DNA of 64,000 bases, taken from Coleofasciculus sp. B1-GNL1-01. GTDB taxonomy: Bacteria > Cyanobacteriota > Cyanobacteriia > Cyanobacteriales > Coleofasciculaceae. The notes under the pieces were generated by a model. It made no database searches. It saw nothing but the letters and a program-made list of their open reading frames with translations, and was not told where the DNA came from. A program made the position numbers and the translations under genes. Shown here piece by piece: positions 1,174-50,184 of this stretch. The stretch lies in NCBI GenBank assembly GCA_040220235.1, contig JAVJTO010000060.1; one strand, 5' to 3'. Every line of letters starts with the position of its first letter. Position 1 is the stretch's first letter.

Positions 1174-4100
1174 TTAAATGTTTTTACTAGAAATCATTTC
1201 TCCCATTGCCACTACAATTTTGCGTGAACCAACGTAGGGATTTCGCCCATGAGCAATTAACATATTATCTAGCATCAATATGTCTCCTTGCTGCCAAGGG
1301 AAGCTGACTTTAGCTTCTTGATAAACTTCTCCAATTTCTGCCATGACTGAGTCTTCAATGGGAGAACCATCACCGTAATAGACATTGCGCGGTAGATTTT
1401 CTTCCCCAAGCGTTGATAGTAGAGATGCCTTAATAGCTGGCTCTAGGCATGATATATGGTGTAATTGCACTTGATTAAAAAATAATGACTCTCCTGTTTT
1501 GGGATGTTGAGAAATTGCTGGTCGCACTTTGCGGATTCTTAGGCTATTACCTGAGAGCCACTCGAAATCAATGCCAGACTGACGACAATAATTTTCGACA
1601 GCTATTTTGTCAGTGGTGTGAAAGAAATCTTGCCAACTTACATCTAGACCTTCGATGTAGTTGCGGACATACATTAATTGTTTTTGCTTGAATCTTTCTC
1701 GTAGTTTTGGATTGAGACGTTGATAGACTTTGCGGCAGTCAACAATCGGAGTTTCTCCACCTTGGTGCGCTGGCTGCACGCAGAAAAACCAAATTTTAAG
1801 GGGCCACTGGTGCATGTGGGAACTTTCGTTATGGAAGAGAATGGCTTGGTTAGAAGGATAAGGGGTAGAACCATAGACTCTGCCACTGATGCCTTCCCTA
1901 GGTAAGTCACCATACTCACCAAACAACTTGGGACAAATAGCACTGGCTACTTTTTCAAATTCAGGTACTGACTTGACATTGAATCCTCGGAAGAGAATTG
2001 CACCGTGTTGCAGCAAATTAGTTTCAATGAATTCGCGTTTGTTAGTTGCCCAGTCAGCTAGGTCAATATCATCTCCATCGGGTTGAATAACATAAGGGAG
2101 GTTTTGTCCAGGCTGGAGATAATCTGTTTTGATTAACTCTTTTTGGGGTAGGCTAACAGTCTTAGGCTTGATAGTTTTGAATTTCTTGAACTGCGCTTTT
2201 TCACGCTGATTTGTTTCAGCAATTTGTTGCTGCTTTTCAGATTCACTAAGCATTTCTAAGGTATTAATTCTGGTATCGGGGTGTTGGGCAATGCTGTGTA
2301 GCAGCGTCTGAAAGTGAGCTGACAGACGGGTAATCGCCTCAGCTTCAAATAGGTCAGTGCGGTATTTCCAATTGCCAACGATTCCTTGCTCTGTGTCTTG
2401 CATAAAGAGAGCTAAATCAAATCTGGCTTTATCGCTATTGACTTCTATTGAGGTGAGAGTCAGACCTGAAAACTCCACAGCAGGCATAGGAGTATTCTGG
2501 AGGACAAATAACACCTGAAATAGGGGGGTTTTACTTGTAGCCCGGTCTGGACGCAAACTTTCTACCAATTTGGCGAAAGGCAAATCTTGATGAGCATAAG
2601 CTCCTAAGCAGACTTCCTGCACTCTTTTTAGTAGTTCTCGGAAGGTGGGGTTACCAGACAAGTCACTGCGCAATAACAGGAGGTTGATAAAAAATCCTAT
2701 TAGGGGTTCTATTTCAGCTCGATGGCGACCGGCAACATCAGTACCAACTATAATGTCATCCTGATTGGTGTAGCGGTACAGTAGTGTCTGAAAAGCTGCC
2801 AGTAAAGTCATAAACAGGGTTACCCTTTGTTTGCGACTCAGTGTTTTGAGTTGTTGAGACAGGTGAGTTGATATTAGGAAGGATTGAGCTACAGACTCCT
2901 GTTTTCTGGTAGTTAGAGGGGGAGGGTCTGCTATTTTCTGTAAATTCAGTGTAGCGGGAGCACCCGCCAGTTGTTGCCGCCAGTAAGAAAGCTGGTTTTC
3001 CAGTACTTCTCCTTGTAGCCACTGACGCTGCCAGACTGCAAAGTCTGTATACTGGATGGGAAGCTCTGGTAGCGGAGAGGGCTGACCTTGAGAGAATGCC
3101 TCATAGAGTGTTGCCAGTTCTGTTATCAACACTCCCATAGACCATCTATCAAAAATAATGTGGTTTGTACTGAACAGTAGCACATGTTCCTGCTCATTTA
3201 GTTTTAGCAGCTTTACTCTCAGCAACGGGTCTTGAGCTAAGTCGAATAATTTTTGACTCCACTCATTGGCTAACCGCTGGACTTCACTCTTCTGCTCAGC
3301 TTCTGGCAACTGGCACAAGTTCACTACCGACAAACTAATATCTAAGGATGGGGCGATCCGCTGAATGGGTTGTCCCTCAACAACAGGAAATGTAGTGCGA
3401 AAGACTTCATGACGACGCACAATTTCGTTGAAGGCCTGCTCCAGTGCTGCTACATTGAGTAAACCAACTAGACTTACAGCGTCTAGTTCGTTATAGCTAC
3501 CTGAGTCTAGTTGCTCTAGAAACCACAGCCGCTGCTGAGCAAAAGACAGGGGTAATTTGCCATTTCGTGAGACGCGCTTGATGGATTGCTCGAAGTCTTT
3601 CTGGAGCACTTTTGTTGTCTGGAAGTTAGAAGGGGGATAGCCTCCAACTTCTGGAGATTGGCAATGAGCGATAAGCGATCGCAACGCTTCGATAAAACTC
3701 TGTGCCAGGTTCTCAATCGTAGCTCGCTGATGAATTGCCTCACTGTAAGTCCAATCGAGTCGTAGCTGACCTCCAGCAACAATCCCGTTAATATCTAATA
3801 GATGGCTGCGACTTCCCCGCAAGCTAAGTGCTTGTCCGCTAGGTTCTCGAGCTGGTACAAACAGAGATGACTCCTGGAATACCTGGTCAGTCTGGCCCAG
3901 ATAATTAAACGCGATTTCAGCTTGAGGCTGATGCTGCCAAGACGTTGTCTCCTCACCCTTGAGATAGCGTAAAACGCCATAGCCAATTCCTCGATTTGGA
4001 ATACTTCTGAGCTGTTCTTTAATCGTCTTTAAAGCATCTCCCGGACTAGCAGATTCCTCGATATCCAGCAAAACGGGGAAGATAGTAGTGAACCAGCCCA

Positions 4101-7100
4101 CAGTACGTGATAGGTCTACATCATCAAAGATTTCCTCCCGTCCGTGACCCTCAAGGTCAATTAGCAGTGAGTACACCCCTGTCCACTGGGCAAAAGCTTG
4201 TACCAGCGCTGTAAGCAGTACATCATTAATTTGAGTCTGATAAGCTGCCGGTACTTCCTGTAGCAATGCTTGAGTTTCTTCCTTGCTCAGAGCTACCGAC
4301 ACATTCCTCGCTTTAGCCACAGTATTATCGCCTTCAGGAAAGTCTACTGGGATGTGGGCAATTTGCCGACGAGACTCCCTCAGCCAGTAATCCAACTCTT
4401 GTTGTAGTGCTTCAGATTGGGCGTACTCCCTTAATCTTTCCGCCCAATACTTGAACGAGGTTGTTTTAGGTGACAACTGAATCTCTTTGCCCTGACTGAG
4501 TTGTTGGTAGGCACTCTGGAGGTCTTCTAACAAAATCCGCCAAGAGACACCATCAACGGCTAGGTGGTGGATGACCAACAGCAAGCGGTCAGGCTTGTTG
4601 GCACCTAAGTTAAAGTAGGCTACCCGCACCAGTGGTCCTGAGGATAGATTGAGGCTGGCTTGTAGTTCAGTCGCAGCTTTCGATATGGCTAGCCCTCGTT
4701 CTGTCTCTGAAACCGTTGACAAATCTAGCAGAGTAAATGGCGTTAACTCATCAGGGTTAACCTCAAGCTGCTGCCAGTCTGTTTCCTGGTGAACAAAGCA
4801 CAGGCGCAGAGCATCGTGGTGTTCGAGCAGTTTCTGCACTGTCTGCTCCAACAGTGCCGGGTCAAGTGCTTGCCGAACTTCCAGTAAAATTGATTGATTC
4901 CAATGATGAGACTCAGGAAGATTTTGCTCAAAGAACCAGTGCTGAATAGGAGTTATAGGCACTTTACCTGTCACCAACCCCTGTTGAGCTTGAATAACTC
5001 GGTTCGTGGCAGCCACTGCTGCTAGTTCGGCAATTGTCTGGTGTTCAAACATCTGCTTGATTGTCAGATTCAGACCAGTCTGGTTTGCTCTAGCGACGAT
5101 CTGGATACTGAGGATGGAATCCCCACCTAAGTCAAAGAAATTATCGTGTACTCCTATCTTTTCGAGTCTGAGAACCTTAGCCCAAATTTCAGCTAGGACT
5201 TTCTCAACAGTAGTACGAGGTGCTACAAAAGTTTCTTCCTCCTCAGATCTGGTTAGATCGGGTGCTGGTAGTGCTTTTCGGTCTACTTTGCCGTTGGGTG
5301 TTAAGGGTAAGGTGTCTAAGGTGACAAAGGCATTTGGCACCATGTATTCGGGTAGCTTTAAAAAGAGAAATTCACGCAGTTGCTTAGTAGTGAGTGATTC
5401 ATCTCTAGTAACGATATAGGCAACTAAACGTTTGTTACCAGGAAGATCTTCTCTGGCAATAACTACAGCTTGTTGGATTTGGGAGTGAGTGTTGAGGAAG
5501 GATTCGATTTCTCTGAGTTCGATGCGGAAACCCCGAACTTTCACCAGGCGATCGAGGCGACCAAGAAACTCAATTGTTCCGTCCGTTCGGTAACGCACGC
5601 GATCACCCGTTTTGTAAAGACGCGCTCCTGGTGTTTCACTAAATGGATCGGGAATAAACGCCAGTGCTGTGAGTTCCGGTCGGTTTAAATAACCTCTAGC
5701 GACACCAACTCCTCCGATGTAAAGTTCTCCTGGAACACCTACTGGCACTGGCTGTAAGTATGGGTCGAGGATGTAAGTCTTGGCATGGCTAATTGCTTTG
5801 CCGATGGGCAGTTCTTGCCCTGAAATATCGACATCTGTAAGATCTGACAAGTCAACAGCGGTCGTCACGATGGTTGCTTCTGTAAGACCGTAGGTATTGA
5901 CCAGGCGTACCCTTCGATCGACCTGCTGCTGCCAGGTAGTGAGTCGCTTTGGCAACGCTTTTTCACCGCCAATAATGACCAAGCGCACACAATCCGGTAA
6001 GGTCAAATTCAGGGCTGGCAATTCAGCAACCATTTGATGCCAGAATGCAGTGGGTAAGTCGAGTACCGTCAGTTGCCAATCGTCGCAACATCGGAGAAAT
6101 GCTGGGATGGAACTCAACATTTCGTCGGTTCGCAAGACTAGCATTGCTCCTCGTGCCAGACAGGGAAAAATTTCTTCAGCAGCAGCATCGAAGCTGATGG
6201 ACGCAAATTGCAAAATGCGATCGCTAGAAGAAATCGCGTATTCAGCCATCGCCGCCTGAGTATAATTCACCAACGACTGGTGTTGAATCATGACTCCCTT
6301 GGGTTTGCCGGTGGAACCAGACGTATAGATCGCATAAGCCAGGTTCTCAGGTCGAGTGTGGCTAACTGGATTTTTGCGGCTTTCCTGTGCAATCAACGTC
6401 CAGTCTGCATCCAAGCAAACCACAGACGATTTGAGATCGGGAAGCCTTGCGACTAAAGCCTCCTGAGTGAGCAGAACCGACACCTGTGAATCTGATAAAA
6501 GAAATCGTTGACGCTCTTGAGGATAGGCTGGGTCTACAGGCAGATAGGCTCCTCCTGCTTTGAGAATTCCTAGCAATCCCACGACCATCTCTAAGGAACG
6601 TTCTACACAGATTCCCACCAGTACCTCTGGTTTTACGCCAAGCTTTTGCAAATGATGCGCTAGCTGATTGGCTCTGACGTTTAGTTCTCGGTAGGTTAGC
6701 TGTTGCTCTTCAAATACTACCGCTACTGCATCCGGTGTTCTCTCTACCTGCTTCTCAAATAACTGATGAATACATTTCTCTAAGGGATATTCACTCTCGG
6801 TCTCATTCCACTTCACCAACAACTGATGACGTTCTGCTTCACTCAACAAGGGTAATTCAGCTACAGTTTGTTGAGGATTTTCTACAATGGCTGATAACAA
6901 GTTCTGAAAATGAGCTGTCATGCGCTCAATGGTTGACCCATCAAACAAGTCAGTATTGTATTCCCATTCGCCCACTAATCCCTGAGTCGTTTCAGTCATT
7001 GACAGGGTTAAATCAAACTGAGCAATTGTGCTTTCCCGCTCTAAGGGAGTCAACGTCACACCGGGTAACTCTACTTCCCCCATCGGTGCATTCTGCAAGA

Positions 7101-8376
7101 TAAACATCACCTGAAACAGAGGAGAATGACTCAAGGAGCGTTGGGGTTGCAAGGCTTCTACTACTTGCTCAAAAGGCACGTCCTGATGTTCGTAGGCTTT
7201 GAGTGTGGTTTCCCTAACTTGTGCCAGTAAGTCCTTGATCCTGGGATTATCTTCAAAACGGGTTCTCAACACCAAAGTATTCACAAAAAAGCCAATCAAA
7301 GATTCAATTTCACGGCGGTGGCGATTGGCTATAGGAGAACCCATTAAAATATCTGATTGACCGCTATAGCGATAGAGTAAAGTGGCAAACGCCGCCAACA
7401 GGGTCATAAATAAAGTTGTCCCCGACTCCCGAGACAGGGTTTGCAACTTTTGGGTTAAATCAGTATTTAAAGTAAAACTGTGAGTCGTCCCTCGGTAAGT
7501 TTGCACAGTTGGACGAGGGTGGTCAGTCGGTAATTGTAACAATTCTGGCGCACCCTGCAATTGAGAAAGCCAGTAATTGAGTTGAGCTTCTAGTACCTCT
7601 CCACTCAACCACTGTCTTTGCCAAATGGCAAAGTCGGCATACTGGATTGGTAATTCGGCTAAGGGAGATGGTTCTCCTGCACCAAAAGCTTGATATAAAC
7701 TAGACAGTTCTTGGATAAATACACCCATCGACCAACCATCAGAGATAATATGGTGCATTGTCAGTAACACTACAGATTCTGTTGCTGATAGCTGCAACAA
7801 ACTGCACCTAATTAAGGGTGCTATCTCCAAGTTAAAGGGGGTAATGGCTTCTTGTTGTGCTTGTTGGTGTAGGACAGTTTCTCGTTCTGTTACTTCTAGT
7901 GGCTCTAAGTCCACCACATTTATCTTCAGGGTGGCTTCTGAGTGAATTACCTGTATGGGTGTGCCGTTAACAGTTTGGAAGCTAGTGCGTAGTACTTCGT
8001 GGCGGCGTACTATTTCTGATAAGGCTTGTTGCAGGGCATTAACATCCAAGTTACCACTGAGGCGGACTGCCCCTGGTATGTTGTAAGTGGCACTTGACCC
8101 TTCCAGTTGGTTGAGGAACCACAGTCGCTGCTGGGCAAAGGACAGGGGTAAATCTGTATCCCTTGGGACAGGCAGAATTGGCTTAATACTAAAACTTGAG
8201 GCAAAATCAGTTTTTTTCAAAAATTCGATTATTTCTGATTTGCGCTCTCGTAGCTGAGACTTCAGAGTCGGTGTCAGCGTTCCTTCAGGGGCATTATAAT
8301 GTAGCTGCTCACCATCAACCCAGAACCTTACGTCTAGACTTTGAAAGCAAGATAAGAATTCATCAATGGGTTTCAT
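1174..8376 (-). CDS. NRPS: docking-C-A(basic amino acid, Lys/Arg-like)-T-E-C-TauD-like beta-hydroxylase
   Basis: C HHIISDGWS; A YTSGSTGKPKG with hand-read code DAEDIGTIVK; T GGDSI; E HHLAVDGVSW/EGHGRE; second C NHIIFDRWS; C-terminal Fe/2OG domain HNE...DNMLIAHGR. Confidence 0.92.
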   Translation of the reverse strand: MKPIDEFLSCFQSLDVRFWVDGEQLHYNAPEGTLTPTLKSQLRERKSEIIEFLKKTDFASSFSIKPILPVPRDTDLPLSFAQQRLWFLNQLEGSSATYNIPGAVRLSGNLDVNALQQALSEIVRRHEVLRTSFQTVNGTPIQVIHSEATLKINVVDLEPLEVTERETVLHQQAQQEAITPFNLEIAPLIRCSLLQLSATESVVLLTMHHIISDGWSMGVFIQELSSLYQAFGAGEPSPLAELPIQYADFAIWQRQWLSGEVLEAQLNYWLSQLQGAPELLQLPTDHPRPTVQTYRGTTHSFTLNTDLTQKLQTLSRESGTTLFMTLLAAFATLLYRYSGQSDILMGSPIANRHRREIESLIGFFVNTLVLRTRFEDNPRIKDLLAQVRETTLKAYEHQDVPFEQVVEALQPQRSLSHSPLFQVMFILQNAPMGEVELPGVTLTPLERESTIAQFDLTLSMTETTQGLVGEWEYNTDLFDGSTIERMTAHFQNLLSAIVENPQQTVAELPLLSEAERHQLLVKWNETESEYPLEKCIHQLFEKQVERTPDAVAVVFEEQQLTYRELNVRANQLAHHLQKLGVKPEVLVGICVERSLEMVVGLLGILKAGGAYLPVDPAYPQERQRFLLSDSQVSVLLTQEALVARLPDLKSSVVCLDADWTLIAQESRKNPVSHTRPENLAYAIYTSGSTGKPKGVMIQHQSLVNYTQAAMAEYAISSSDRILQFASISFDAAAEEIFPCLARGAMLVLRTDEMLSSIPAFLRCCDDWQLTVLDLPTAFWHQMVAELPALNLTLPDCVRLVIIGGEKALPKRLTTWQQQVDRRVRLVNTYGLTEATIVTTAVDLSDLTDVDISGQELPIGKAISHAKTYILDPYLQPVPVGVPGELYIGGVGVARGYLNRPELTALAFIPDPFSETPGARLYKTGDRVRYRTDGTIEFLGRLDRLVKVRGFRIELREIESFLNTHSQIQQAVVIAREDLPGNKRLVAYIVTRDESLTTKQLREFLFLKLPEYMVPNAFVTLDTLPLTPNGKVDRKALPAPDLTRSEEEETFVAPRTTVEKVLAEIWAKVLRLEKIGVHDNFFDLGGDSILSIQIVARANQTGLNLTIKQMFEHQTIAELAAVAATNRVIQAQQGLVTGKVPITPIQHWFFEQNLPESHHWNQSILLEVRQALDPALLEQTVQKLLEHHDALRLCFVHQETDWQQLEVNPDELTPFTLLDLSTVSETERGLAISKAATELQASLNLSSGPLVRVAYFNLGANKPDRLLLVIHHLAVDGVSWRILLEDLQSAYQQLSQGKEIQLSPKTTSFKYWAERLREYAQSEALQQELDYWLRESRRQIAHIPVDFPEGDNTVAKARNVSVALSKEETQALLQEVPAAYQTQINDVLLTALVQAFAQWTGVYSLLIDLEGHGREEIFDDVDLSRTVGWFTTIFPVLLDIEESASPGDALKTIKEQLRSIPNRGIGYGVLRYLKGEETTSWQHQPQAEIAFNYLGQTDQVFQESSLFVPAREPSGQALSLRGSRSHLLDINGIVAGGQLRLDWTYSEAIHQRATIENLAQSFIEALRSLIAHCQSPEVGGYPPSNFQTTKVLQKDFEQSIKRVSRNGKLPLSFAQQRLWFLEQLDSGSYNELDAVSLVGLLNVAALEQAFNEIVRRHEVFRTTFPVVEGQPIQRIAPSLDISLSVVNLCQLPEAEQKSEVQRLANEWSQKLFDLAQDPLLRVKLLKLNEQEHVLLFSTNHIIFDRWSMGVLITELATLYEAFSQGQPSPLPELPIQYTDFAVWQRQWLQGEVLENQLSYWRQQLAGAPATLNLQKIADPPPLTTRKQESVAQSFLISTHLSQQLKTLSRKQRVTLFMTLLAAFQTLLYRYTNQDDIIVGTDVAGRHRAEIEPLIGFFINLLLLRSDLSGNPTFRELLKRVQEVCLGAYAHQDLPFAKLVESLRPDRATSKTPLFQVLFVLQNTPMPAVEFSGLTLTSIEVNSDKARFDLALFMQDTEQGIVGNWKYRTDLFEAEAITRLSAHFQTLLHSIAQHPDTRINTLEMLSESEKQQQIAETNQREKAQFKKFKTIKPKTVSLPQKELIKTDYLQPGQNLPYVIQPDGDDIDLADWATNKREFIETNLLQHGAILFRGFNVKSVPEFEKVASAICPKLFGEYGDLPREGISGRVYGSTPYPSNQAILFHNESSHMHQWPLKIWFFCVQPAHQGGETPIVDCRKVYQRLNPKLRERFKQKQLMYVRNYIEGLDVSWQDFFHTTDKIAVENYCRQSGIDFEWLSGNSLRIRKVRPAISQHPKTGESLFFNQVQLHHISCLEPAIKASLLSTLGEENLPRNVYYGDGSPIEDSVMAEIGEVYQEAKVSFPWQQGDILMLDNMLIAHGRNPYVGSRKIVVAMGEMISSKNI

Positions 8377-11300
8377 AGTATTCCCTCCTCTCGAACACCA
8401 AAAGCAGCAGTTGTAAAACTTTGCTGTTTTTGGGTTGTCAAACGTATATTTTCAACTTGCTCAGATATACCGGCCACAGTCGGTTTCTCGAACAGGCTGC
8501 GTAGGGACAACTCCATCAGGAACGCCTCGCGCATGCGAGAAATAATTTGAGTGGCTAGTAGAGAATGTCCTCCCAATTCAAAGAAGTTGTCGTGGATTCC
8601 TACCTTTTGTACGCCTATAACTGAAGCAAAGATGTTGGCGATTATTTCTTCACTTGCCGTGCGGGGTGCTACGTATTCATGTTCTCGGCTGATTTCTCCA
8701 TCTGGTGCTGGCAGTGCTTTTCTGTCTACTTTGCCGTTAGGTGTTAGGGGGAGAGTGTCTAAGGTGACAAAGGCAGAAGGCACCATGTATTCGGGTAGCT
8801 TTGAAAAGAGGAATTCACGCAGTTGCTTGCTGGTGAGTGATTCATCTCTAGTAACGATATAGGTAACTAAGCGTTTGTTACCAGCAGTGTCTTCTGTCGC
8901 AATGACTACAGCTTGTTGGATTTGGGGGTGGGTGTTGAGAACGGCTTCAATTTCTCCGAGTTCGATGCGGAAGCCGCGAATCTTTACTTGATGGTCAATG
9001 CGACCGAGGAATTCGATATTGCCATCCGGCAGCCAGCGAGCTAGGTCTCCAGTCCTATACAATCTTTCTTCTTCTGCCTTTTGACTTTTCCCGATTTCCT
9101 TCGCAAACGGGTTGGGAATAAACTTTTCCTGCGTTAACTCAGGCAGATTCAAATACCCTTGTGCTAGTCCATCTCCTCCTACATATAGCTCACCCGTAAC
9201 ACCTGGTGGTAAAAGATTGCCATACTTGTCCAGTATGTAAATTTGTGTGTTTGAAATCGGTTTTCCAATCGGAATCGTATTTTTCTTCATATAGTCTTCT
9301 AGAGCTTCTCCTAAATCTGCTTTTGGATCGTCCGCCAACTGCAAATGTATCGCTTCTTTCACGATAGCAGTTTCTGTACCACTTGAGTCACTTCTTTGTA
9401 CGGGAAGATTTTTTATACCATCAAGTTTCCCTTGACTTCTTGCTTCAATTTGATTGGCGATTCTCAGTTGATCCTCAAGAACACTCTGTAAATCTGTAGC
9501 GGTTGTATTCGGATTAGACAAAACAGCCCGAAATACAATGATTTCTTTGTCTTTACCATAGGCAGTGTCCATCAGAGTGCTCTTAGAGACAAAGGTTAGT
9601 CCTTGTTCAAATTGTTCTCTTTGTATCTGTGTATTGAGTTGATTAATTCTTTGGATGTCATCGTCACTCAAGGAGTTTTGTTGTGATTTCGCTCTTAAAT
9701 TCTCAGGAATATATCGATAATTAACGATATTCAACCCTGGTTCCATGACGAGATCGAATGGTTCCAATAGCTCAATCAGTCTAGAAAAATATTGGGCTTT
9801 CTCTATGCCATTGTCAATCAGAATCTCGTATCCCCTTTTACCGATAATATGAAGTGCCCCGTGTAAGCATAACGATAGTGCCGAACGTGACCCTTCAATC
9901 GTGAATCGTCCCACGTCAAATGTATCTCGCTGAGCCTGGTAACGGGCTGTGGTCTCGGCAAAGTTTAACATCTGCGGATCTTTAAACAGACAAACACTAA
10001 TACCCTGAGGTAGGTATAACTGTTTATGCCCACAAATAGTTATCGAATCAGCTTTGTTGATTCCCTTCAATTTTCCTTTATGCTTCTCGGAAAATATCGT
10101 CGCACCACCCCAAGCAGCATCCACATGAAAATGAATACCGAATTCCTGCGCGATATCGCCCAGTTCAAATAAAGGATCGATTTCACCAGTTTCTGTTGTT
10201 CCAGCGATGCCTACAAGCGCCAGAATGTATAGCTTATTTCTACTACATTCGCGGATTCTTTCTTTGAGCAAATTTAGGTCTAATTTTCCGTCATCATTAC
10301 TGTCAATAAAAACAATGTTGTCTGTCCCCAAACCTAACATTGAAGCTGCCTTATTGAAAGAATAATGCATTAGCCGAGAGCCAATGATAACGATATCGTC
10401 ATATCCTTTTTTACTCAGAACTTTATAAAGGCTTTCTTTTGATAAATTGCCGGATTTTTTTGTGTTTAACAATCCCGAATTTCGCGCACACAATAAAGCA
10501 CTGATGTTTGCCGTTGTACCGCCGGTTGTTATAATACCCAGGTTTCTATTTTTTTGCTGAATATTTTCCTCGTAAAATTCACCTGAAAAGTTATAAACAA
10601 GACGATGCAATATGGCGATCGCTTCCCGTTCCAAAAACATCAAAGACTTTGATGTCTCGATTTTCACCAAATTTTGGTTCAATCGCGAAATCATCTTGCT
10701 CATATCATGCATAAAATCGGGCAAAGCCGATGTCATATGCCCGATGAATGTAGGAGAGCCTGTATCGATCGCATATGGAAGCACCTCCTCGGACAATTTA
10801 TCGTAATAGTCGTCAACGGTTAAAGGATATGAGGGCAACTCGCTCCGTTGAAACTTTGTAGCTAGCATTTCTGGACTCACGCCAGGCTTCGTAAACGGTT
10901 TCTGGTGAACCCCAAGAACCTGGTTTTCGGTTGCACCACGAACAACTTCTGGCTTGAAATATTGCAGTATTCGTTGCCGTGTTTCCCAAAAATTGACTTC
11001 AAAGCAGGTCACGTCAGCAGCAACTTCTGAAGAGCCGTAGATATTGAACAATCTGGCAGAACTGAGTTTCTGGTGAAATGCCTCAGCCAACGTTAGTGGT
11101 AGGGCTTCACCGCTGCAAAAGACATATTTGAGATATCGAAGTTGTGTCAGTTGTTGGGGCGCATTGTCCAGCATCGCTTTGAGCAGGGAGGGAACCAGAA
11201 CAATTCTAGTTATCTTGTTATCGCTCAACAGGCTCATTAGCCTGGGAATATCGCCTCGTATATTATCTGGAACAACCACGAGCGGAATCCCTTTGAGAAG

Positions 11301-13517
11301 GGGAGAAAATATTTCCGCAACATGATCGACAAAATTGATGGACGTTTTCTGACAGCAAATCTCATCTGCCCCAAATGGTAGGGTTTCCCACATCCAATGC
11401 AAGCGATTGACGATACCACGATTTTTACCTAGAACGGCTTTGGGTCTTCCAGTAGAACCGGACGTATAGATTGCGTATGCCAGGTCATCCAGTGTTGCTT
11501 GACAATCTAGATTTTCGACGCTTTCTTTAGCAATGGCATCCCTATCCCTGTCTAGACAGACGATATGGGCGTGTTGAAGGGAAATTTTTTCAGTCAAAGG
11601 CTCCTGGGTCAATAGGACATGCACATTGGCGTCTTCGAGCATGAACACCAGTCGTTCTTGCGGATAATTCGGATCTAACGGCACATATACGCCACCGGCT
11701 TTGAGAACACCCAGCAAACTCACTACTAGATCAAGAGATGGCTCAATACAGATTCCCACCAGCACTCCCGAACCAACAGAGAGAGACCGTAAATAATGCG
11801 CTAGTTGATTGGCTCGTTGGTTCAACTGCCGATAAGTTAGCTGCTGGTTTTCAAGAACGAGTGCGATCGCATCTGGAGTGCGTTTCACCTGCTCTTCAAA
11901 TAACTGATGAATACATTTATCTGAGGGATATTCACTCTCGGTATCATTCCACTCGGTCAACAACTGATGGCGTTCTGCTTCACTCAACAGGGGCAATTGG
12001 TCAACTCGCTGTTGTGGATTAGCCGCGATCGCTTCGAGCAAGGTTTGCAAGTACCCACTCATCCGGCTTATTGTGGCAGCATCAAACAAATCGGTGTTGT
12101 ATTCCCAGAAACCCTCTAGCCCCGAATCCGTTTCTGTAATATCCAAGCGCAAATCCAACAAAGCCCTGGTGCGTTTAACCTTAACAGGTGTTAAGGTCAG
12201 CCAAGGCAGTTCACATTTCACTTTTGGAGTATTTTGTAAGACAAACGACACCTGGAACAGCGGATTGTAGTTGGCATTCCGTTCTGGCTGTAGTTCCTCC
12301 ACCAGCTTTTCAAAGGGCAAATCCTGGTGATCATAAGCTTCCATCGTCACCTGCCGCACTCGACCTAAGAGTTCCTCAAAGGTCGGGTTGCCTGAAAAAT
12401 CGGTACGTAGTACTAGGGTGTTGAGGAAAAAGCCAATGAGTCCTTCAATTTCAGCTCGGTTACGGTTAGCGATAGGTGAACCAACGATGATATCTTCTTG
12501 CCCACTGTAGCGGTAGAGCAAGATTTTGAAGACTGCCAGCAGGGTCATGAACAGGGTAGCCTCGGCTTTTTTGCCAACAGTCTTAAGGGTCTCAGTCAAA
12601 CTCTTGGGCAACCGAAATGATTCCTTTTCCCCCCGATAAGTCTGAACTGGTGGTCGGGGTCGGTCTGTTGGCAGTGGCAGCAGGGGTGGAGCTTTTTCCA
12701 GTTGCTGCTTCCAGTAAGAGAGTTGGGAGTGTAGTTTTTCTCCCTGCAACTGTTGTCGCTGCCAGACGGCGAAGTCGGCATATTGAATTGGCAGTTTAGG
12801 CAACGGCGAAGGTTTTCCGGTAGAAAAGGCTTGGTAAAGGGCTGACAATTCACGAATGATTATGCCCAATGACCAGCCATCAAAGACAATGTGGTGGATA
12901 TTGAATAGCAGCACATGTTCCTGTTCGCTTAGCTGTACCAGCATCCAGCGCAGCAGAGGACCTTGAAGCAAGTCGAAGGGACGTTGACTTTGCTCAGTCG
13001 CGAGGCCCTGGACTTCCATTTTCTGCACCGCTTTTGGCAACTGGCGCAGATCTACCACGGGCAGTGTCAAGGTCAGGTTTGGGGCAATGATTTGAACGGG
13101 TTGCGCCTCCACCATCTTGAAAGTGGTGCGCAGAGCTTCGTGGCGTTGCACCATCTCGTTGAGACTCTGCTCCAATGACGCCACGTCAAGCAAACCTGTT
13201 AGCTGTATTGCTACGTGTTCATTGTAAAAAGGGTTGCCGGGTTCCAACTGTTGGAGAAACCATAGCCGCTGCTGGGCAAAGGATAAAGATAGATTTCTCT
13301 CTCTCGAAACAGGTTGAATAGCCTGAGACGTACTGTTTGAGGCAAGATTAGCCTGGTTGAGAAATGCAATAATTTCGGCTTTGCGTTCAGAGATCTGAGC
13401 GATTAGATCTGGTGTTAGTGCTTCTTCAGGGGCATTACAACGCAAGTGATCGCTTTCAACCCAAAGCTTTACATCCAGACTATAAAGGTAAGATAAAAAT
13501 TTATAAATCGTCGTCAT
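8373..13517 (-). CDS. NRPS: docking-C-A(beta-Ala-type, interrupted by PLP-dependent group II decarboxylase)-T
   Basis: C [9 protein letters not shown]; A motifs [20 protein letters not shown]; then about 570 aa with GHMTS, [34 protein letters not shown]; A resumes at [29 protein letters not shown]. ATG 13517 preferred over the TTG at 13544. Confidence 0.92.
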   Translation of the reverse strand: [1714 protein letters not shown]

Positions 13518-13570
13518 AGCTCTATTTCCTTTCTTCCTTTCCAAGCTTTACATTCAGGCTATAATCGTAG

Positions 13571-16500
13571 TCATAGCTCTATTTCCTTTCTTCCTTCTCC
13601 GGCAGCAATGGGAGAGCCTGATGCTTGGGCGAGAGTCAAACGAATTGCTTCAACGCGCTCAGCTAAACCAGCTACGGTGGTTGGTCTCTCAAAGAAACTA
13701 TGTAGGGACAGCTCTATTTGAAATTCTTTACGCAACTGAGAGATAACTTGAATAGCCATTAGAGAATCTCCCCCCAGTTCAAAGAAGTCATCATGGATAC
13801 CTACTTGCTCGATCCCAACAGCTTGTCGCCAGGTATTCGCAATAGTTTGTTCGACCTCGTTGCAGGGAGCAACATAGGCATTCCGCAAGTTTGATCTCGA
13901 GTGGAGTGATAATGAATCTTTCTTTTTTGAGTATTCTGTATCTCGTAAAGATTCAAGCTTAAGCCATTGGTCAATCCTCGTGTGCAAGTCTCCAGCCGAG
14001 ACAACAACTTGAGGGAGTTCAGCCATTGATAACACACGCCTAAATGCCTCCACACCTCCCTTTGGGGACATAGCTAATTTAGACAAGGTGGCTCCAATCC
14101 CTGCTTCTTGCTTTTCTTCTTCCCTAAGCCCCCAGTTATCCCAGTTCACGCTAATCCAGGGACAAGAGTCTGCCTGGTCGTGCTTGAAAGCAAAGGCATC
14201 CATAAAGATGTTCGCTGCGGAATAGGAAACGAATCCTAAGCCTCCCAAAATAGATGCTAAAGAGGATGTTAATAGAACAAAATCAAGATTTCTTCCTTGC
14301 AAAACTTTTTCCAAGACAAATAGTCCATACACTTTGGGCTGAAATTGCAAATGACTATCGGTTTGAGAAGTTTCTTGAATAGCACAATGTGTATTTTCGA
14401 GATTCCCAGCAGCGTGGATGACACCATGAATTTCACCAAAGCGCTCATATGTGTGGGAAATTGCTGTCTGCATTTGTTGCTCGCTTGTCACATCGGCACT
14501 AATGACCAGAACCTCGACTCCTAGCTCCTCGATTGTCCGCACTTTCTGTATCTTTTGGCTGACTTTATCCTGCCGATCGTGAGTCGCTAGCCATTGCTCC
14601 CACTGGGAGCGCTCAGGCAGCCCCTTTCGTCCGATTAGGATCAACTTAGCCCGTACTGTCTTCGCTAGATATTCTGCCAATACCAAACCGATGCCACCCA
14701 GTCCACCAGTGATTAGGTAGACTCCTCCTTCCCTCAAACGTGTTCTGCTTGTACTGCTATCATTTAAACGGACAGCTTCAAAGGTCTGAACCCAACGATG
14801 ATTACCACGGTAGGCAACTACTAAATCACTTGGCTGTACGGTAAATTCCCTTATTAAGTGGTCTATCAGTTTCTGTGCTTGCTTTGTCCCAGATTCAGGA
14901 ATCACTACATCAAAGCTACAGCATGTTATGTTTGGATATTCCTGTGGAATTACCTTGCACGGACCTAACACAGTCGCTTTCTCTGGAAATAACTTCTCGT
15001 CGCCAGTCACTTCATGTACATTGCTGGTTACGACCATGAGTTGAAGAGGCTCAGTAACCTTCTGTTCTCCTAGTGCTTGTGCCAGAAAGAGCAGACTGTA
15101 GAAACCGAGATTTTGACAATCTTCAAAGAACTGATGTGGTGATTGTGTCTGTTCGCCTAGCTTGTTGCTAGGAAAAGTATTGCTGGCTGTGATACTCCAA
15201 AAATGCGCAATCCCTTGTGGGGTTAAATCCCGACTCTGAAGTTCTTGAACCAGGGCATCATAGTCATCCCGTTGTTGGGGATTAATTGTGTATGCGTACT
15301 CACTGAGTTTGCTAAACTGATCTCCCACTCTCACAGTGATGACATCATGGTTCTGCTGTTCCAGCCGTTTTGCTATTTCTGAGCCGACTCCATAGGCATC
15401 GACAAAGACTAGCCAGCATGACTTTAACTCTACCAGCTCTCTTTCTTGGTAGAAGTCAAGAAGCATAGATTGTTTCCAAACTGGCATGTAGAACCAGTCG
15501 GCAATATTTGGTTTCTTGTGTAACGGATCTTGACGCGCCGTTGCTAGGAAGGTTGACTGGTTTGGTTCAATCCAGTAACGCTGACGCTCAAAGGGATAGG
15601 TAGGTAAGGGAATATGATGACGTCGTTCATAGGCATAAAAACCTGACCAATCGACTTTGACACCTGCTAACCAGAGACGACCTAAGCTATTCAGTAAAAA
15701 GGCGATATCTGACTGTTGCTCCTGGGGATGGCGTAGCGAGGTTAGCACCCCGTTATTATTGATCTGATGCTGCTTGGCAAACGTACTCAACGTCCGTCCA
15801 GGACCAACTTCCAGCAAAACTCGCTCAGGTGTTTTGAGCAACTCAGTCACTCCTGCACTGAAACGCACAGGTTGTCGTAGATGTCTTGCCCAGTAATTCG
15901 GATCTGTTGCTTCTGATGGGGTAATCCAAGTTCCAGTGAGATTCGAGACAAAAGGAATTTGGGGAGGATTGAAGGTGATTTGATGTAATAACTCTGTAAA
16001 TGGCTCAATCATTGGCTCCATCATCGGAGAATGAAAAGCATGAGAGGTATGAAGCCTTCGACAGGGTATGCTTTTTTCTTGTAAGGTCTGTTGCAATTGT
16101 GCGATCGCCTCTGCTGAACCAGACACCACAGATGAAGTAGGGCTATTGCTTCCTGCCAGCGCCAGGTCTTCTCCCAGTAACGGTTGCACTTCTGGTTCTG
16201 GTAGTTGAACGGACAGCATCGCGCCAGAGGGCAGTTGCTGCATCAATCGTCCTCTAGTTGCTACTATTGCTAAGGCATCTTCTAGGGAGAAAACTCCCGC
16301 TAGACACGCTGCTACATATTCCCCAATGCTGTGACCGATCATCACTTCGGGATACACACCCCACGCCATCCATAACTTAGCTAGCGCATACTCAATTACA
16401 AACAACGCAGGTTGGGTAATGTGAGTTTGTTGAAGTTGTTGTGTCGCCTCTTGCTCCTGGGTTGTACTGGGGTAGAGTAAATGACGCAAATCTAGCCCGA

Positions 16501-18217
16501 GGTGAGGTTTGATCCGTTCACAGCAGTCATCAACGTGTTCAGTAAAAATTGGCTCATGCTGGTAGAGTTCCAGTGCCATATTGACGTACTGCGAACCCTG
16601 CCCGGAAAACATAAACACCACGGGGCGATTACCGGCTTCTTGGTAGTGGGTGAAAACTCGTTGCGAATCTAGATTTGTCAGCGCCTGCACTGCATCATCC
16701 AGAGTTTGACACACTAACATCCGGCGATGCTCGAAATCTCGGCGACCAACCTGAAGTGTATGAGCAACATCGGCAAGATTCAAATCGGGATGTTGCTGGA
16801 GGCAATTCGCCAAATTCACTGTGGCGGTTTCCAGTGCCGTACTTGTCTTGGTCGAGAGCAACAACAACTGCCAGGGACGAGAAGGACTAGAGGGTTCAAT
16901 TGCCGGAGCTTCTTCGAGAATCAGATGGGCATTAGTGCCACCAAAACCGAAGGAACTAACTCCAGCGCGACGAGGGATGTCGTTGTTTTTCCATTCAGAC
17001 AGCGTTGTGTTGACGTAAAAAGGACTATTTGCAAAATCTATCTTGGGATTGGGTTCCTCAAAATGCAAACTGGGTGGTATTTGCTGATGCTTGAGTGCTA
17101 GAACAGTCTTGATAAGACCTCCCACTCCAGCGGCATTATCTAAATGCCCTACATTTGTTTTAAGCGAACCGATGGCACAGAAGCCACACTTCTGCGTACT
17201 GGTGTGAAAAGCTTTTGTGAGCGCTGCGATTTCAATAGGGTCTCCTAGGGATGTTCCTGTACCGTGGGTCTCGATGTAGGTAATTGTTTCAGGTTCAACT
17301 TCAGCCATAACTTGAGCTGATCTAATCACCTTCACTTGACCATTTATGCTGGGTGCAGTGTAGCTAACTTTGGAAGACCCATCGTTATTGATCGCCGAAC
17401 CTTTGATCACAGCATGGATACAGTCTCCATCTGCTATTGCCTCCTCTAACCGCTTCAACACCACAAGACCTATCCCCTTGCCTATCCCAGTTCCCTCTGC
17501 TTTGGCATCAAAGGCACGGCAACGTCCGTCAGGAGAATAAATTCCTCCCTTTTGATACAAATAACCAGCATATTTTGATATTGAAACGCCACCGGCCAAA
17601 GCCATATCACATTCGCCACTCAGCAGACTTTGGCATGCCAAATGAACAGCGACCAACGAAGTTGAGCAGGTAGTTTGAACTGCATAACTTGGTCCATCCA
17701 GGTTTAATTTGTAAGATACTCGTGTGGTTACAAAGTCTGGATTATTAGCAATAGAAACTTGTAAATGACTTACGTTGTTAATAATTTCCGGATTTGAATA
17801 AATATTAAATAAGTAACTATTTACGCTTAGACCTCCGAAAACCCCAATCGACTTCTTATAAGTTTCTGAATTGTAGCCAGCGCTTTCAAGAGCCTCCCAA
17901 GCAGACTCTAAGAAAATACGGTGTTGGGGATCCATGATTTCAGCTTCTCTGGGAGTAAATCCAAAGAATGACGCATCAAACAAATCTACATTTTTGACTA
18001 CGCCACCTGCCTTAACATAATTAGGATCGCTGACTAACTTAGGATCTATAACTAAATCCTTTAATTGCTGGTCAGTCAAAGAAGAAATCGATTCTACGCC
18101 GCCTCGGAGATTTTGCCAAAATTCATCAAGGTTTTTAGCTCCAGGAAAACGACCAACCATGCCAATTATGGCTATTTCTAAACCCGTGGTCTTACTGGAT
18201 TTTTTGGGATTAATCAT
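13571..18217 (-). CDS. Type I PKS module KS-AT(malonyl)-KR-ACP
   Basis: KS TTCSTSL, HGTGT, NVGHL; AT GHSIG and HAFHS; KR GGLGGIG with PK...SS...YSAAN intact; ACP GGDSL; acidic C-terminal docking tail RKEIEL. Confidence 0.93.
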   Translation of the reverse strand: MINPKKSSKTTGLEIAIIGMVGRFPGAKNLDEFWQNLRGGVESISSLTDQQLKDLVIDPKLVSDPNYVKAGGVVKNVDLFDASFFGFTPREAEIMDPQHRIFLESAWEALESAGYNSETYKKSIGVFGGLSVNSYLFNIYSNPEIINNVSHLQVSIANNPDFVTTRVSYKLNLDGPSYAVQTTCSTSLVAVHLACQSLLSGECDMALAGGVSISKYAGYLYQKGGIYSPDGRCRAFDAKAEGTGIGKGIGLVVLKRLEEAIADGDCIHAVIKGSAINNDGSSKVSYTAPSINGQVKVIRSAQVMAEVEPETITYIETHGTGTSLGDPIEIAALTKAFHTSTQKCGFCAIGSLKTNVGHLDNAAGVGGLIKTVLALKHQQIPPSLHFEEPNPKIDFANSPFYVNTTLSEWKNNDIPRRAGVSSFGFGGTNAHLILEEAPAIEPSSPSRPWQLLLLSTKTSTALETATVNLANCLQQHPDLNLADVAHTLQVGRRDFEHRRMLVCQTLDDAVQALTNLDSQRVFTHYQEAGNRPVVFMFSGQGSQYVNMALELYQHEPIFTEHVDDCCERIKPHLGLDLRHLLYPSTTQEQEATQQLQQTHITQPALFVIEYALAKLWMAWGVYPEVMIGHSIGEYVAACLAGVFSLEDALAIVATRGRLMQQLPSGAMLSVQLPEPEVQPLLGEDLALAGSNSPTSSVVSGSAEAIAQLQQTLQEKSIPCRRLHTSHAFHSPMMEPMIEPFTELLHQITFNPPQIPFVSNLTGTWITPSEATDPNYWARHLRQPVRFSAGVTELLKTPERVLLEVGPGRTLSTFAKQHQINNNGVLTSLRHPQEQQSDIAFLLNSLGRLWLAGVKVDWSGFYAYERRHHIPLPTYPFERQRYWIEPNQSTFLATARQDPLHKKPNIADWFYMPVWKQSMLLDFYQERELVELKSCWLVFVDAYGVGSEIAKRLEQQNHDVITVRVGDQFSKLSEYAYTINPQQRDDYDALVQELQSRDLTPQGIAHFWSITASNTFPSNKLGEQTQSPHQFFEDCQNLGFYSLLFLAQALGEQKVTEPLQLMVVTSNVHEVTGDEKLFPEKATVLGPCKVIPQEYPNITCCSFDVVIPESGTKQAQKLIDHLIREFTVQPSDLVVAYRGNHRWVQTFEAVRLNDSSTSRTRLREGGVYLITGGLGGIGLVLAEYLAKTVRAKLILIGRKGLPERSQWEQWLATHDRQDKVSQKIQKVRTIEELGVEVLVISADVTSEQQMQTAISHTYERFGEIHGVIHAAGNLENTHCAIQETSQTDSHLQFQPKVYGLFVLEKVLQGRNLDFVLLTSSLASILGGLGFVSYSAANIFMDAFAFKHDQADSCPWISVNWDNWGLREEEKQEAGIGATLSKLAMSPKGGVEAFRRVLSMAELPQVVVSAGDLHTRIDQWLKLESLRDTEYSKKKDSLSLHSRSNLRNAYVAPCNEVEQTIANTWRQAVGIEQVGIHDDFFELGGDSLMAIQVISQLRKEFQIELSLHSFFERPTTVAGLAERVEAIRLTLAQASGSPIAAGEGRKEIEL

Positions 18218-21115: not shown

Positions 21116-22441
21116 CTATACCACTGTTACTGGTCGCTCATTCCCTTTTGAAATCAGGCACTCATCAAATACTTCTTTTAAAATTGAACACCCCTTTTGC
21201 AAAGTAGACATTTCAATAGTCAAGGGGGGCAAGATTTTAATTACGGTATCATTTCTTCCCACTCGTTCAGCAATTAGTCCTCGTTCAAAACATCGGGAAG
21301 TTATCTGCTTGGTCAAACTGGCATCTTCAAACTGGGCAAGATCGATTCCCCAAATCATACCAATACCACGTATTTCTATTTTGTTATGAATTGATGCGAT
21401 TTGCTCATTTAAAAACTTTTTTAGAAAAGTCTCTTTAATGTTAACCTCTTGTTCAAGATTGGTAATTTCTCGATATTCTAAAGCGGCTGTTCCACCAACG
21501 AAGGCGAGTTGATTTCCTCTAAAAGTCCCCGTATGCTCACCAGGTTTCCAAATATCTAACTCTGGCTTAATTAATAAAAGGGACATGGGAAATCCGTAAC
21601 CACTGATAGATTTTGAGAGGACAACAATATCAGGAACGATATTCGCTCGTTCAAAGGAAAAGAATGAACCAATTCTACCACAACCTACTTGAATATCATC
21701 GCAAATCAATAAAATATCATGCTTGTCACACAACGCTCTGAGTTTTTGCATCCACTCAATCGGTGCGACAACAACTCCCCCTTCCGCTTGTACAGTTTCA
21801 AAGATGATTGCGGCGGGTTTCTTAATTCCAGAACTGACATCATTGAGGACTGATTCAATATATCCTATCGTATCAAAATTGTTCATAAATCCATAGGGAT
21901 AGGGCATAAAGGTGACATTATTTGATGTGCCAATTGTCCCTGAACGGATTGCTGTATTTCCCGTAACCGCTAAACTGCCCAAGGTCATGCCATGATAGGC
22001 TCCCATAAAGGAGAATATGCCTGTTCTTTTTTTGACTTTTCTGGCTAATTTTAAAGCTGCCTCCACAGCATTAGTGCCAGTGGAACCACAAAACTGGATT
22101 TGATAATCTAGGTTTTTGGGCATGAGGACTTTCTCGGAAAATTTAATTAAAAAGTTTTCTTTGGCGGATGTGTATAAATCTAAGCCATGGGCAATAGAGT
22201 CGGCTTCTAAATAGGACATCACTTGTTGTTTAATATAATCATTGTTGTGTCCATAGTTCAACGCCCCCGCACCCGATAGGAAATCAATATACTCTACTCC
22301 GGATTCTGAGTAGACCATAGACCCTTTTGCTCTATGGAATACGGTAGGAAAACTCCGACAATAACTTCTAACATTTGACTCACGCTGGGTAAAAATATTC
22401 ATGGTATTACTCACGGTTTTCGTATGGTGTAATGGATGCAA
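21116..22441 (-). CDS. Diaminobutyrate--2-oxoglutarate aminotransferase (EctB/Dat family, class III PLP)
   Basis: ESNVRSYCRSFP, DFLSGAGALNYGHN, ETVQAEGG, DDIQVGCGR, SKSISGYG, GEHTGTFRGN. Start may be ATG 22402. Confidence 0.92.
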   Translation of the reverse strand: MHPLHHTKTVSNTMNIFTQRESNVRSYCRSFPTVFHRAKGSMVYSESGVEYIDFLSGAGALNYGHNNDYIKQQVMSYLEADSIAHGLDLYTSAKENFLIKFSEKVLMPKNLDYQIQFCGSTGTNAVEAALKLARKVKKRTGIFSFMGAYHGMTLGSLAVTGNTAIRSGTIGTSNNVTFMPYPYGFMNNFDTIGYIESVLNDVSSGIKKPAAIIFETVQAEGGVVVAPIEWMQKLRALCDKHDILLICDDIQVGCGRIGSFFSFERANIVPDIVVLSKSISGYGFPMSLLLIKPELDIWKPGEHTGTFRGNQLAFVGGTAALEYREITNLEQEVNIKETFLKKFLNEQIASIHNKIEIRGIGMIWGIDLAQFEDASLTKQITSRCFERGLIAERVGRNDTVIKILPPLTIEMSTLQKGCSILKEVFDECLISKGNERPVTVV

Positions 22442-34185: not shown

Positions 34186-34276
34186 TGTTTTTCTAAGCCT
34201 AGGAACAAGAGTTTTCAAATTGACTTAACGGCTTGGGTAGACTTTGCACGGATTACTTAGTTAAAAAAATGGTTCA

Positions 34277-35245
34277 TTAGTTTTGATAAGAATAGCGACT
34301 AAAAAATGGGTAAAACTCCATATTTATTCTCACGCGGTCAATTAATTTAGGAGTCCAATCTGCCCCATGCCTGCTTTTAGGGGGAGATTTATAAACAAAA
34401 TCTGCACAATCTTTTAAGTAGTCGCTCGGATGTTCAACTTCTAAAAAATTACAAATTTTTATTAAGTGGTCTTTTGGATTTTCAATAAATGATTCGTAAT
34501 AAATGTCCAAACACTTACTAGAATTGAGTTTTTCTTTAAGTCCTGCAACTGCTTTGTATAGCAAAAAATATAGCTCTATTGTGGTTTCCAGATCTAACGT
34601 TTTTTTATTTAAATATCGATAGAATGGATATTTGAGGTTGAGAGATTCTTTTTTAAGAAGATTGGTTTTTTTCATCAATGTAGTAATGGTGTCATAAGGG
34701 TTTCTGATGACATGAATAAACTGAGATGAGGGTTTGGATTTAGTGCATAAAGACTTGAATAAATTGGGATTTAGATACAACCACAGCGTTGCACCGGGTC
34801 CCTGTTTATCTCCAATGACCTTAAGTTCTCTAAATCGTCCTTGCCATTGGTTAGAAATCCCATAAGAATATCCTCCCATTTCTCGATTTTCTTGGGCATT
34901 GATTTGGGACAGTTTTATAATTAACGAGTAATGTTGCTGTTGACTAAATCCATCCTTTAGGTATCGTATGGCATTTAATTCGTCAGAGATGACCATTTCT
35001 GGATGAGCATCTATTAAGGAAGCAATTAGACTGTGACCACTTCTCGTTGACCCAATGAACGTGCAATATTTATTTATCGTTTTGAAAGACTCTCGATTTT
35101 TAAGCGCTTTATAGGCGGATTGAATATACTCATGAAACTTATCGGGGAATATCCGTCCATTCAGGTGACGGATATAGAGATGATAAAATTCTTGAGTCTG
35201 AGGACTAATTCCCTTTAATAGGGCTTCTTCTAAACTATTGTTCAT
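34277..35245 (-). CDS. Sulfotransferase family protein
   Basis: IGSTRSGHSLIASLIDAHP (5'-phosphosulfate-binding loop), IHVIRNPYD (3'-phosphate motif) and YESFIENP...ICNFL are typical of PAPS-dependent sulfotransferases. Visibly AT-rich. Confidence 0.75.
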   Translation of the reverse strand: MNNSLEEALLKGISPQTQEFYHLYIRHLNGRIFPDKFHEYIQSAYKALKNRESFKTINKYCTFIGSTRSGHSLIASLIDAHPEMVISDELNAIRYLKDGFSQQQHYSLIIKLSQINAQENREMGGYSYGISNQWQGRFRELKVIGDKQGPGATLWLYLNPNLFKSLCTKSKPSSQFIHVIRNPYDTITTLMKKTNLLKKESLNLKYPFYRYLNKKTLDLETTIELYFLLYKAVAGLKEKLNSSKCLDIYYESFIENPKDHLIKICNFLEVEHPSDYLKDCADFVYKSPPKSRHGADWTPKLIDRVRINMEFYPFFSRYSYQN

Positions 35246-35326
35246 GCTTGTCTGATCTATGGGTAAATTTAGCTGAACTGAATGAAGGAGAATGATTGAA
35301 CAGATGAATGAGGATTTATATAGATA

Positions 35327-41356: not shown

Positions 41357-41415
41357 ACTCTCTTTTTCTTATTTATCGGGTTGAGCCAATCAACGATTTT
41401 TCTGGAATTAACGTT

Positions 41416-50171: not shown

Positions 50172-50184
50172 TTGCTTTTTCTAA

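Follow-up and report, generated by a model that had tools for sequence, protein, structure and literature searches.

What is a complete decarboxylase doing in the middle of the adenylation (A) domain of a nonribosomal peptide synthetase (NRPS)? The question is raised by contig JAVJTO010000060.1 of the cyanobacterium Coleofasciculus sp. B1-GNL1-01 (assembly GCA_040220235.1), of which a stretch of 64,000 nucleotides was analysed, from here on referred to as the window. The NRPS gene concerned lies on the minus strand at 8373..13544 and encodes 1,723 amino acids counted from a TTG start. The original prediction gave the frame as 8373..13517; the gene is the same, but the strand is minus and 13517 marks an ATG at residue 10 of a longer open reading frame (ORF), with 1,714 amino acids counted from that ATG. 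Pfam models match the protein in the order TubC_N, condensation (C), AMP-binding in two stretches with Pyridoxal_deC between them, AMP-binding_C and PP-binding, and the Pyridoxal_deC match (PF00282, residues 919-1278) has an E-value of 6e-47 and 160.6 bits against a gathering cutoff of 27. All decarboxylase and A-domain motifs quoted in the prediction occur in the right order within a single frame: a5 at 11045-11010, then GHMTS starting at 10742, TTGGTTAN at 10529, HYS at 10367 and HVDAAWGG at 10127, the motif of the pyridoxal phosphate (PLP) lysine at 10049-10017, and IPIGKP at 9275-9258. The spacing from a5 to PIG is 591 residues in this domain and 26, 28 and 29 in three sibling A domains, so the net insert comes to about 565 amino acids, in agreement with the roughly 570 in-frame residues first claimed; a fourth sibling was read as 48, the spacing pattern having passed over its SIG variant. 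A complete PLP-dependent decarboxylase is therefore present between motifs a5 and a6 of one polypeptide, which makes this an interrupted A domain. Its ten-residue specificity code, located with landmarks of the GrsA numbering, reads VDAVFSIADK, identical to the earlier reading, and nine of the ten positions (V-D-A-V-F-S-I-A-D) fall in the N-terminal half. No N letters occur anywhere in the window.

The embedded decarboxylase is a widespread family found across several phyla, not the single unusual case that had been implied. Searching the insert against proteins of 947-3,016 amino acids gave 212 matches in 8,000 candidates, of which the best 120 were examined, the window's own protein among them, leaving 119 homologues. 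In 117 of these the decarboxylase lies between the same two A halves; one of the two exceptions starts inside the insert, and the other has the decarboxylase between the C and A domains. The best 150 representatives at 50% identity comprise 94 embedded proteins, eight that are incomplete but consistent, four other fusions, and 44 stand-alone forms. By source name, carriers include cyanobacteria, Pedobacter, Chitinophaga, Tenacibaculum, Aquimarina, Fulvivirga, Flavitalea, Motilimonas, Agarilytica, Thiothrix, Ca. Electrothrix, Burkholderiaceae and Ca. Cloacimonetes, although the spread is patchy, with the embedded module present in only 2 of 401 sampled cyanobacterial genomes, own genome counted. 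Among the carriers in culture are Calothrix CCY 0018, Mastigocoleus testarum BC008 and Hyella patelloides LEGE 07179. Invariant in an alignment of 118 modules, the query among them, are the PLP lysine, the HYS histidine, the HVD aspartate, the loop Tyr and the Asn-Tyr-Gly of a5; the a7 Asp is kept in 117 and the a10 Lys in 114 (the rest are gaps). Judged by these residues, both the decarboxylase and the A-domain parts look alive.

That the insert is an artefact of assembly, or a dead passenger in a protein that has lost one of its two activities, is highly improbable. Such a view could draw on the G+C content of the insert, 0.39-0.43 against 0.46-0.51 in the C-A region, and no read set of this strain was found. 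Nevertheless, G+C is equally low in other parts of the cluster, homologues down to about 41% identity keep the catalytic residues of both parts almost unchanged, and the fusion seen in 117 of the 119 listed homologues recurs in 13 named genomes: 13 of 14 loci from separate named assemblies match both junctions in single ORFs at 75-87% identity. With the same insert at the same site in named genomes and homologues, and both catalytic sets kept, a chimera at either junction, which the original prediction had named as a way in which it could fail, is rejected. In the read search, no run matched half of the sampled words and no RNA run was among the matches; contigs from four runs left the a5 junction unspanned by 31 letters and are not counted against a chimera. 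A joint of 9343 to 10978 in three of the four runs (tidal-flat) would correspond to an in-frame empty form, but as one side is only 28 letters this is a hint only. In the ESM Atlas, generic A domains and clusters of A with Aminotran_1_2 were found and none of the embedded-decarboxylase type; two of its clusters (106 and 66 members, about 1,200 amino acids) combine AMP-binding, Aminotran_1_2 and PP-binding, likewise uniting a PLP enzyme with an A domain.

The family to which the insert is closest is PanP. The PanP model, TIGR03799, matches it with 517.8 bits over model positions 54-522, the best family by about 380 bits, followed by RhbB (139.2 bits, cutoff 900), MfnA (130, cutoff 299) and GAD (39, cutoff 380), while solved glutamate and cysteine-sulfinate decarboxylases score at most 137 bits. 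PanP of Vibrio fischeri is described as an aspartate decarboxylase in PMC10102598, which cites Pan et al. 2017. Among 54 stand-alone relatives chosen, the 14 over the PanP cutoff were used as PanP proper; the insert shares 40-49% identity with these and conserves 86 of the 99 columns that are invariant among them. The residue three positions before the PLP lysine is Cys in 97 of 97 embedded proteins and Asp in 14 of 14 over-cutoff PanP sequences (CxHK versus DxHK), and Ser1183 together with Cys1171 is common to all 97 embedded inserts in the tree, unlike PanP proper. In trees of 165 rows and of 43 chosen rows, the embedded inserts form two clades beside PanP proper, not inside it. With two distant decarboxylases as the root, embedded clades I and II come together at an SH-aLRT of 86 (unstarred), with stand-alone CxHK rows inside the joined clades, and the embedded insert may have a single origin. 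We infer a PanP-type function for the insert and place it in a PanP-like, CxHK sister subfamily, not filing it as a PanP member. Thus the PanP-type aspartate 1-decarboxylase originally proposed stands with respect to its nearest family, by profile and phylogeny and with decarboxylases of diaminobutyrate (Dab), glutamate, tyrosine and cysteine sulfinate far lower, but the insert is under the PanP cutoff and outside the PanP clade.

Nineteen stand-alone CxHK proteins are known from these searches, many of them nested among embedded ones, and some may be fragments; two (P0124 and P0126), 72-76% identical to the insert and nested in the cyanobacterial embedded clade, are likely released inserts. 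The window's own genome has no other PanP-like gene. It does have a housekeeping pyruvoyl PanD (G000:C109:10127-10465, locus L016), so the insert is not needed for pantothenate, and a role there is unlikely. A Dab decarboxylase, suggested by the Dab transaminase of the cluster, was rejected on family score, and this reading also fails because its product has no carboxyl to adenylate.

AlphaFold2, run on residues 549-1612 with 101 alignment rows, returned a model of the A-decarboxylase-A segment with a mean predicted local distance difference test (pLDDT) of 85.8 and a predicted template modelling score (pTM) of 0.61. In this model, the two A halves form one A fold with motifs a3, a5, a7, a8 and a10 kept, superposing as one domain on the intact A domain 4d4g (Z 54.2, root mean square deviation 1.6, 463/480), and the insert matches the group II decarboxylase 4rlg (E 1e-32). 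Across the 212 proteins the linkers measure 22-60 residues and, at the C-terminal end of the insert, 16-62 residues; given this variation and the low confidence of the C-terminal linker, the decarboxylase and the A domain appear loosely tethered. When two copies of the insert alone were modelled as a dimer, the score was 0.90 versus 0.01 for the best of three controls, with contacts agreeing to at least 92% between runs and pLDDT of at least 87; the mark for a dimer is reached by 20 of 30 solved homodimers and by 1 of 23 single chains. As the group II family is dimeric by textbook knowledge, the score possibly reflects likeness rather than binding. To the suggestion that the insert dimerises the NRPS, the model thus contributes a predicted dimer of the insert alone, and pairing of the full protein is a step that we infer.

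Among 210 A halves preceding an insert, 205 codes begin with V, I, A or T followed by D, 205 have Asp331 and none has Asp235; the host domain of the window likewise has Asp236 and Asp331 and no Asp235. In a FastTree tree of 136 A halves, all VD-type domains fall in one clade (0.936), where the query's subclade has as its sister the VDW domains from cyanochelin-C-like clusters (0.889), and the VD-type code first reported for the host is thereby upheld. In 401 cyanobacterial genomes, stand-alone PanP genes lie directly behind an NRPS gene ending in A and thiolation (T) domains in 24 of 24 cases; of the 20 such loci examined, 15 follow an uninterrupted VDW-type A domain, four another code, and one is unread. 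At locus L060, for instance, a fatty acyl-AMP ligase (FAAL) is followed by two modules, then by a Lys-type module that contains a second C/E domain, and then by a VDW module, PanP and a C domain; cyanochelin C has been described with this gene order and set of modules. According to that description (bioRxiv 10.64898/2026.07.24.740629), the fourth residue of cyanochelin C is beta-alanine by tandem mass spectrometry and nuclear magnetic resonance, and the fourth gene is termed a transaminase for beta-alanine supply. The PLP gene behind the VDW modules (L060:16371-18077; loci L044-L063) is a DxHK PanP-type decarboxylase. PanP and VD-code A domains also come together by a different route, three DxHK PanP sequences being fused to such domains on the outside, with the A domain left intact. 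From sequence, the adjacent gene, the terminal fusion and the insertion look like three ways of placing one supply enzyme at VD modules. The code VDWVISLADK, cited in the original prediction as a beta-alanine reference, was not found in the full-text literature searched.

Taken with the family placement, this context makes it likely that the insert is a tethered aspartate 1-decarboxylase supplying beta-alanine to its host. Seated in a surface loop after a5, the PLP-dependent enzyme would convert free L-aspartate to free beta-alanine and CO2, and the product would reach the A site by local diffusion and may feed other beta-alanine modules. Once its two halves have folded together, the host A domain would adenylate beta-alanine and load the T domain, and the C domain would couple it to the chain arriving from the upstream polyketide synthase (PKS) module of a beta-hydroxyaspartate lipopeptide siderophore. 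As the insert would work as a homodimer, two copies of the NRPS subunit should pair. Several points weigh against this reading. The insert is below the PanP cutoff (517.8 versus 606.1 bits) and departs from PanP at 13 of the 99 invariant columns, including the Asp-to-Cys change, and for its position under the cutoff and in a sister subfamily, Asp is a presumed substrate. With Ala239 and Phe299 in place of the Trp and Ile/Val of the VDW type, the pocket differs from the cyanochelin-C-like one (Trp/Val) and might accept another omega-amino acid. The meaning of the VD code draws on the comparison with cyanochelin C and on the usual reading of such codes, the gene at PanP's place in that cluster was called a transaminase, L060 only resembles the cluster, and 5 of 20 stand-alone PanP genes have no readable VDW module immediately before them. 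Finally, a pTM of 0.61 makes the relative placement of the two domains uncertain, and activity and product are predictions from sequence and models.

If these differences reflect chemistry, the insert could act on Glu, 3-hydroxy-Asp or 3-methyl-Asp and the A239/F299 pocket could take gamma-aminobutyrate, isoserine or 3-aminoisobutyrate, an unlikely alternative. The Cys1171 and Ser1183 pair and the separate clades of the embedded inserts agree with it, as do the commonest embedded codes, which lack Trp239; at loci L005-L007, moreover, an uninterrupted VDW module lies two genes downstream of the embedded VDA module, which could mean two different residues. Set against this, the same CxHK insert is also found in embedded hosts with VDW-type codes (at least 26), P0318 joins a DxHK PanP to a VDA-type domain, and the active-site motifs match PanP while the best solved glutamate decarboxylases reach at most 137 bits. 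A more extreme form of beta-alanine supply, obligate channelling in which beta-alanine is handed from the PLP site to the A site of the host and never released, appears less likely still. The insertion site is identical in all embedded members, as channelling would have it, but in six proteins a further VD-code A domain lacks the insert, the stand-alone CxHK proteins are often nested among embedded ones, and the linkers are of variable length and low confidence. Since sibling VD modules have no insert, strict channelling is unlikely; of the original wording, that the insert "supplies or channels" beta-alanine, the first verb is favoured by family and context and the second is not. In one protein (P0369, residues 769-810), an empty VD domain keeps about 13 residues of the insert start along with its last residues, and with scars of both flanks retained, the insert can evidently be lost cleanly.

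Improbable, to a greater degree than either of these, is an on-carrier route in which Asp is activated at its side-chain carboxyl by the A domain and, once bound as aspartyl-S-T, loses its alpha-carboxyl to the insert. Decarboxylation on the carrier is reportedly what happens in the vicenistatin and fluvirucin starter-unit systems, and embedding would set the decarboxylase near the T domain. The pocket with Asp236 and Asp331 has no basic residue for the free carboxylate, a residue said to be needed in VinN. Moreover, the same code class works with stand-alone PanP, and in 82 of 211 embedded modules no T domain was detected immediately behind the A domain. Known A-domain inserts do act on T-bound substrates (PMC11355689), and in P0093 a CxHK decarboxylase stands beside an A domain with an Asp-like code. 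There the decarboxylase lies between the C domain and the intact A domain, possibly an on-carrier or relocated variant. As a separate observation, 25 of 211 embedded modules are free A-decarboxylase-A proteins without C or T detected (P0045, P0066, P0073-P0080 and others). Tethered supply of free beta-alanine thus remains the preferred reading. A broader statement, namely a cross-phylum family of interrupted A domains with a CxHK insert that acts before adenylation, pairs NRPS subunits by dimerising, has never been described for its site or chemistry and may use a substrate other than Asp in some branches, is one that we hold only tentatively.

The literature lists interrupted A domains of families 1-7 with sites a2-a3, a6-a7 and a8-a9 and with methyltransferase inserts, ketoreductase (KR) and oxidase/monooxygenase (Ox/MOx) being mentioned (Lundy, Mori and Garneau-Tsodikova 2020, PMC8341866). 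The statement that known inserts are mostly at A2-A3 or A8-A9 is correct for those sites, to which the reviews add a6-a7. Methyltransferase, KR, oxidase, monooxygenase or epimerase inserts are listed in the reviews consulted (PMC8341866, PMC11355689, PMC8949500, PMC10510592), which make no mention of a decarboxylase, nor, in PMC8341866, of a5-a6; PMC12471526, on gausemycin, likewise has no decarboxylase mention. As in Lundy families 1-7, a catalytic domain here occupies an A-domain loop with the A fold kept, but in place of a methyltransferase at a2-a3, a6-a7 or a8-a9 it is PF00282 at a5-a6, which lies outside the definition of those families; moreover, the known M inserts act after loading, whereas the decarboxylase would most likely act before adenylation. 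With PanP, the insert shares the PLP motifs and the identity given above, but PanP is a free DxHK protein and the insert an embedded CxHK one. The cyanochelin C cluster (ccsG and ccsR) is a FAAL-started beta-hydroxyaspartate siderophore line with an acylase and transporter block, as here; its PLP supply enzyme is a separate gene next to the beta-alanine module, called a transaminase, and here it is inside the A domain, and this cluster, unlike that of cyanochelin C, has two PKS units, a Dab branch and a sulfotransferase.

VinN/VinL/VinO and FlvN/FlvL/FlvO are said to combine an A domain and a PLP decarboxylase to yield a beta-aminoacyl carrier, as proposed here, and reportedly differ in being separate proteins with on-carrier decarboxylation and an Asp-binding pocket. 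JamL of the jamaicamide pathway (Edwards et al. 2004) reportedly adds beta-alanine and exceeds by about 600 residues the length that the domains listed for it would require; JamL is absent from the insert-search matches and from seven genomes of its genus, and it is not mentioned in the open papers searched. A decarboxylase inside an A domain was neither described nor studied biochemically in the full-text literature searched; nevertheless, we think it rather probable that the architecture has already been mentioned in print. No sign was found that a decarboxylase-interrupted A domain has been assayed or classified.

The surroundings of the gene (Table 1) are those of a cyanochelin-type siderophore line, given its FAAL start, TauD domains, acylase and TonB, ExbB, FecCD and ABC genes. 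The cluster contains two PKS units, three TauD domains, a Dab transaminase, a sulfotransferase, an Ntn acylase and transport genes; a FAAL start, Asp modules with TauD hydroxylases and transport genes, the marks of the cyanochelin type, are all present. The sulfotransferase, at 34277-35245 (minus strand), sits within the line between PKS and NRPS genes. At 23956-28530 and 3-1157 (both minus), the N-terminal C-like domains of two Asp-type modules show no HHxxxD, and both follow TauD-bearing genes, as in interface domains. The line ends beyond the window with an Asp-type module and then a methyltransferase-interrupted module with a reductase. In this last module (L017:3757-9216), the methyltransferase occupies residues 736-858, early in the A domain, and the reductase is terminal; a class III aminotransferase and two methyltransferases follow. 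The cluster thus holds two interrupted A domains. With residue assignments that we take from the standard codes, the predicted product order is acyl, Ser, PKS unit, Gly, OH-Asp, Dab, PKS unit, beta-alanine (from the embedded module), a basic residue, OH-Asp and a last residue.

Table 1. Features of the interrupted NRPS gene and of its neighbours, in window coordinates.
Feature	Position	Strand	Basis
NRPS gene, TubC_N-C-A(a1-a5)-PLP decarboxylase-A(a6-a10)-T	8373..13544	-	ORF and Pfam
TubC-type N-terminal docking domain, residues 13-64	13353..13508	-	Pfam
Condensation domain, residues 83-529, HHxxxDG intact	11958..13298	-	Pfam and motif
A domain N-half, motifs a1-a5, residues 549-850	10995..11900	-	Motifs
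Insert, residues 851-1422, group II PLP decarboxylase, putative PanP-sister CxHK subfamily	9279..10994	-	
TIGR03799 match within insert, residues 895-1362	9459-10862	-	Profile
PLP Schiff-base lysine K1174	10023..10025	-	Alignment with PLP lysine motif of solved group II decarboxylases
C1171, subfamily mark (Asp in PanP proper)	10032..10034	-	Alignment
Y1202, flexible-loop tyrosine, aligned with Y333 of solved Sphaerobacter decarboxylase	9939..9941	-	
C-terminal linker of insert, residues 1374-1421, probably flexible	9282..9425	-	pLDDT <50
A domain C-half, motifs a6-a10, residues 1423-1611	8712..9278	-	Pfam and motifs
Catalytic K1605 of A domain C-half	8730-8732	-	
Thiolation domain, residues 1634-1695, GGHS serine	8460..8645	-	Pfam and motif
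Upstream PKS module KS-AT-KR-ACP, likely donor (presumed collinearity)	13571..18217	-	Pfam
Downstream NRPS C-A-T-(E)-C-TauD, likely acceptor	1174..8376	-	Pfam
Diaminobutyrate transaminase, stand-alone precursor-supply gene	21116..22441	-	Over cutoffs of PRK09264, TIGR02407, TIGR00709
Assembly-line start: FAAL-ACP-C-A-T, stand-alone TauD, PKS, sulfotransferase, NRPS with fused TauD	28609..47691	-	Pfam
Siderophore-type block: MFS, Ntn acylase, type II thioesterase, ExbB, TonB, two FecCD, ABC ATPase	48843..60770	.	

The embedded module adds to the known interrupted A domains an insertion site, a5-a6, and a chemistry, PLP decarboxylation, both unlisted in the reviews consulted. Small stand-alone A-decarboxylase-A proteins of about 1,050 amino acids make the mechanism directly testable, and a loop between a5 and a6 that accepts a 60-kDa enzyme predicted to be dimeric would be useful for NRPS engineering. 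For genome mining, the architecture A-PF00282-A, often labelled "aminotransferase class V", would predict beta-alanine, and the "transaminase" behind beta-alanine modules in cyanochelin-C-like clusters is suggested to be PanP. In these assembly lines, the usual order would be reversed, with the insert making the substrate of its host domain instead of tailoring a loaded one.

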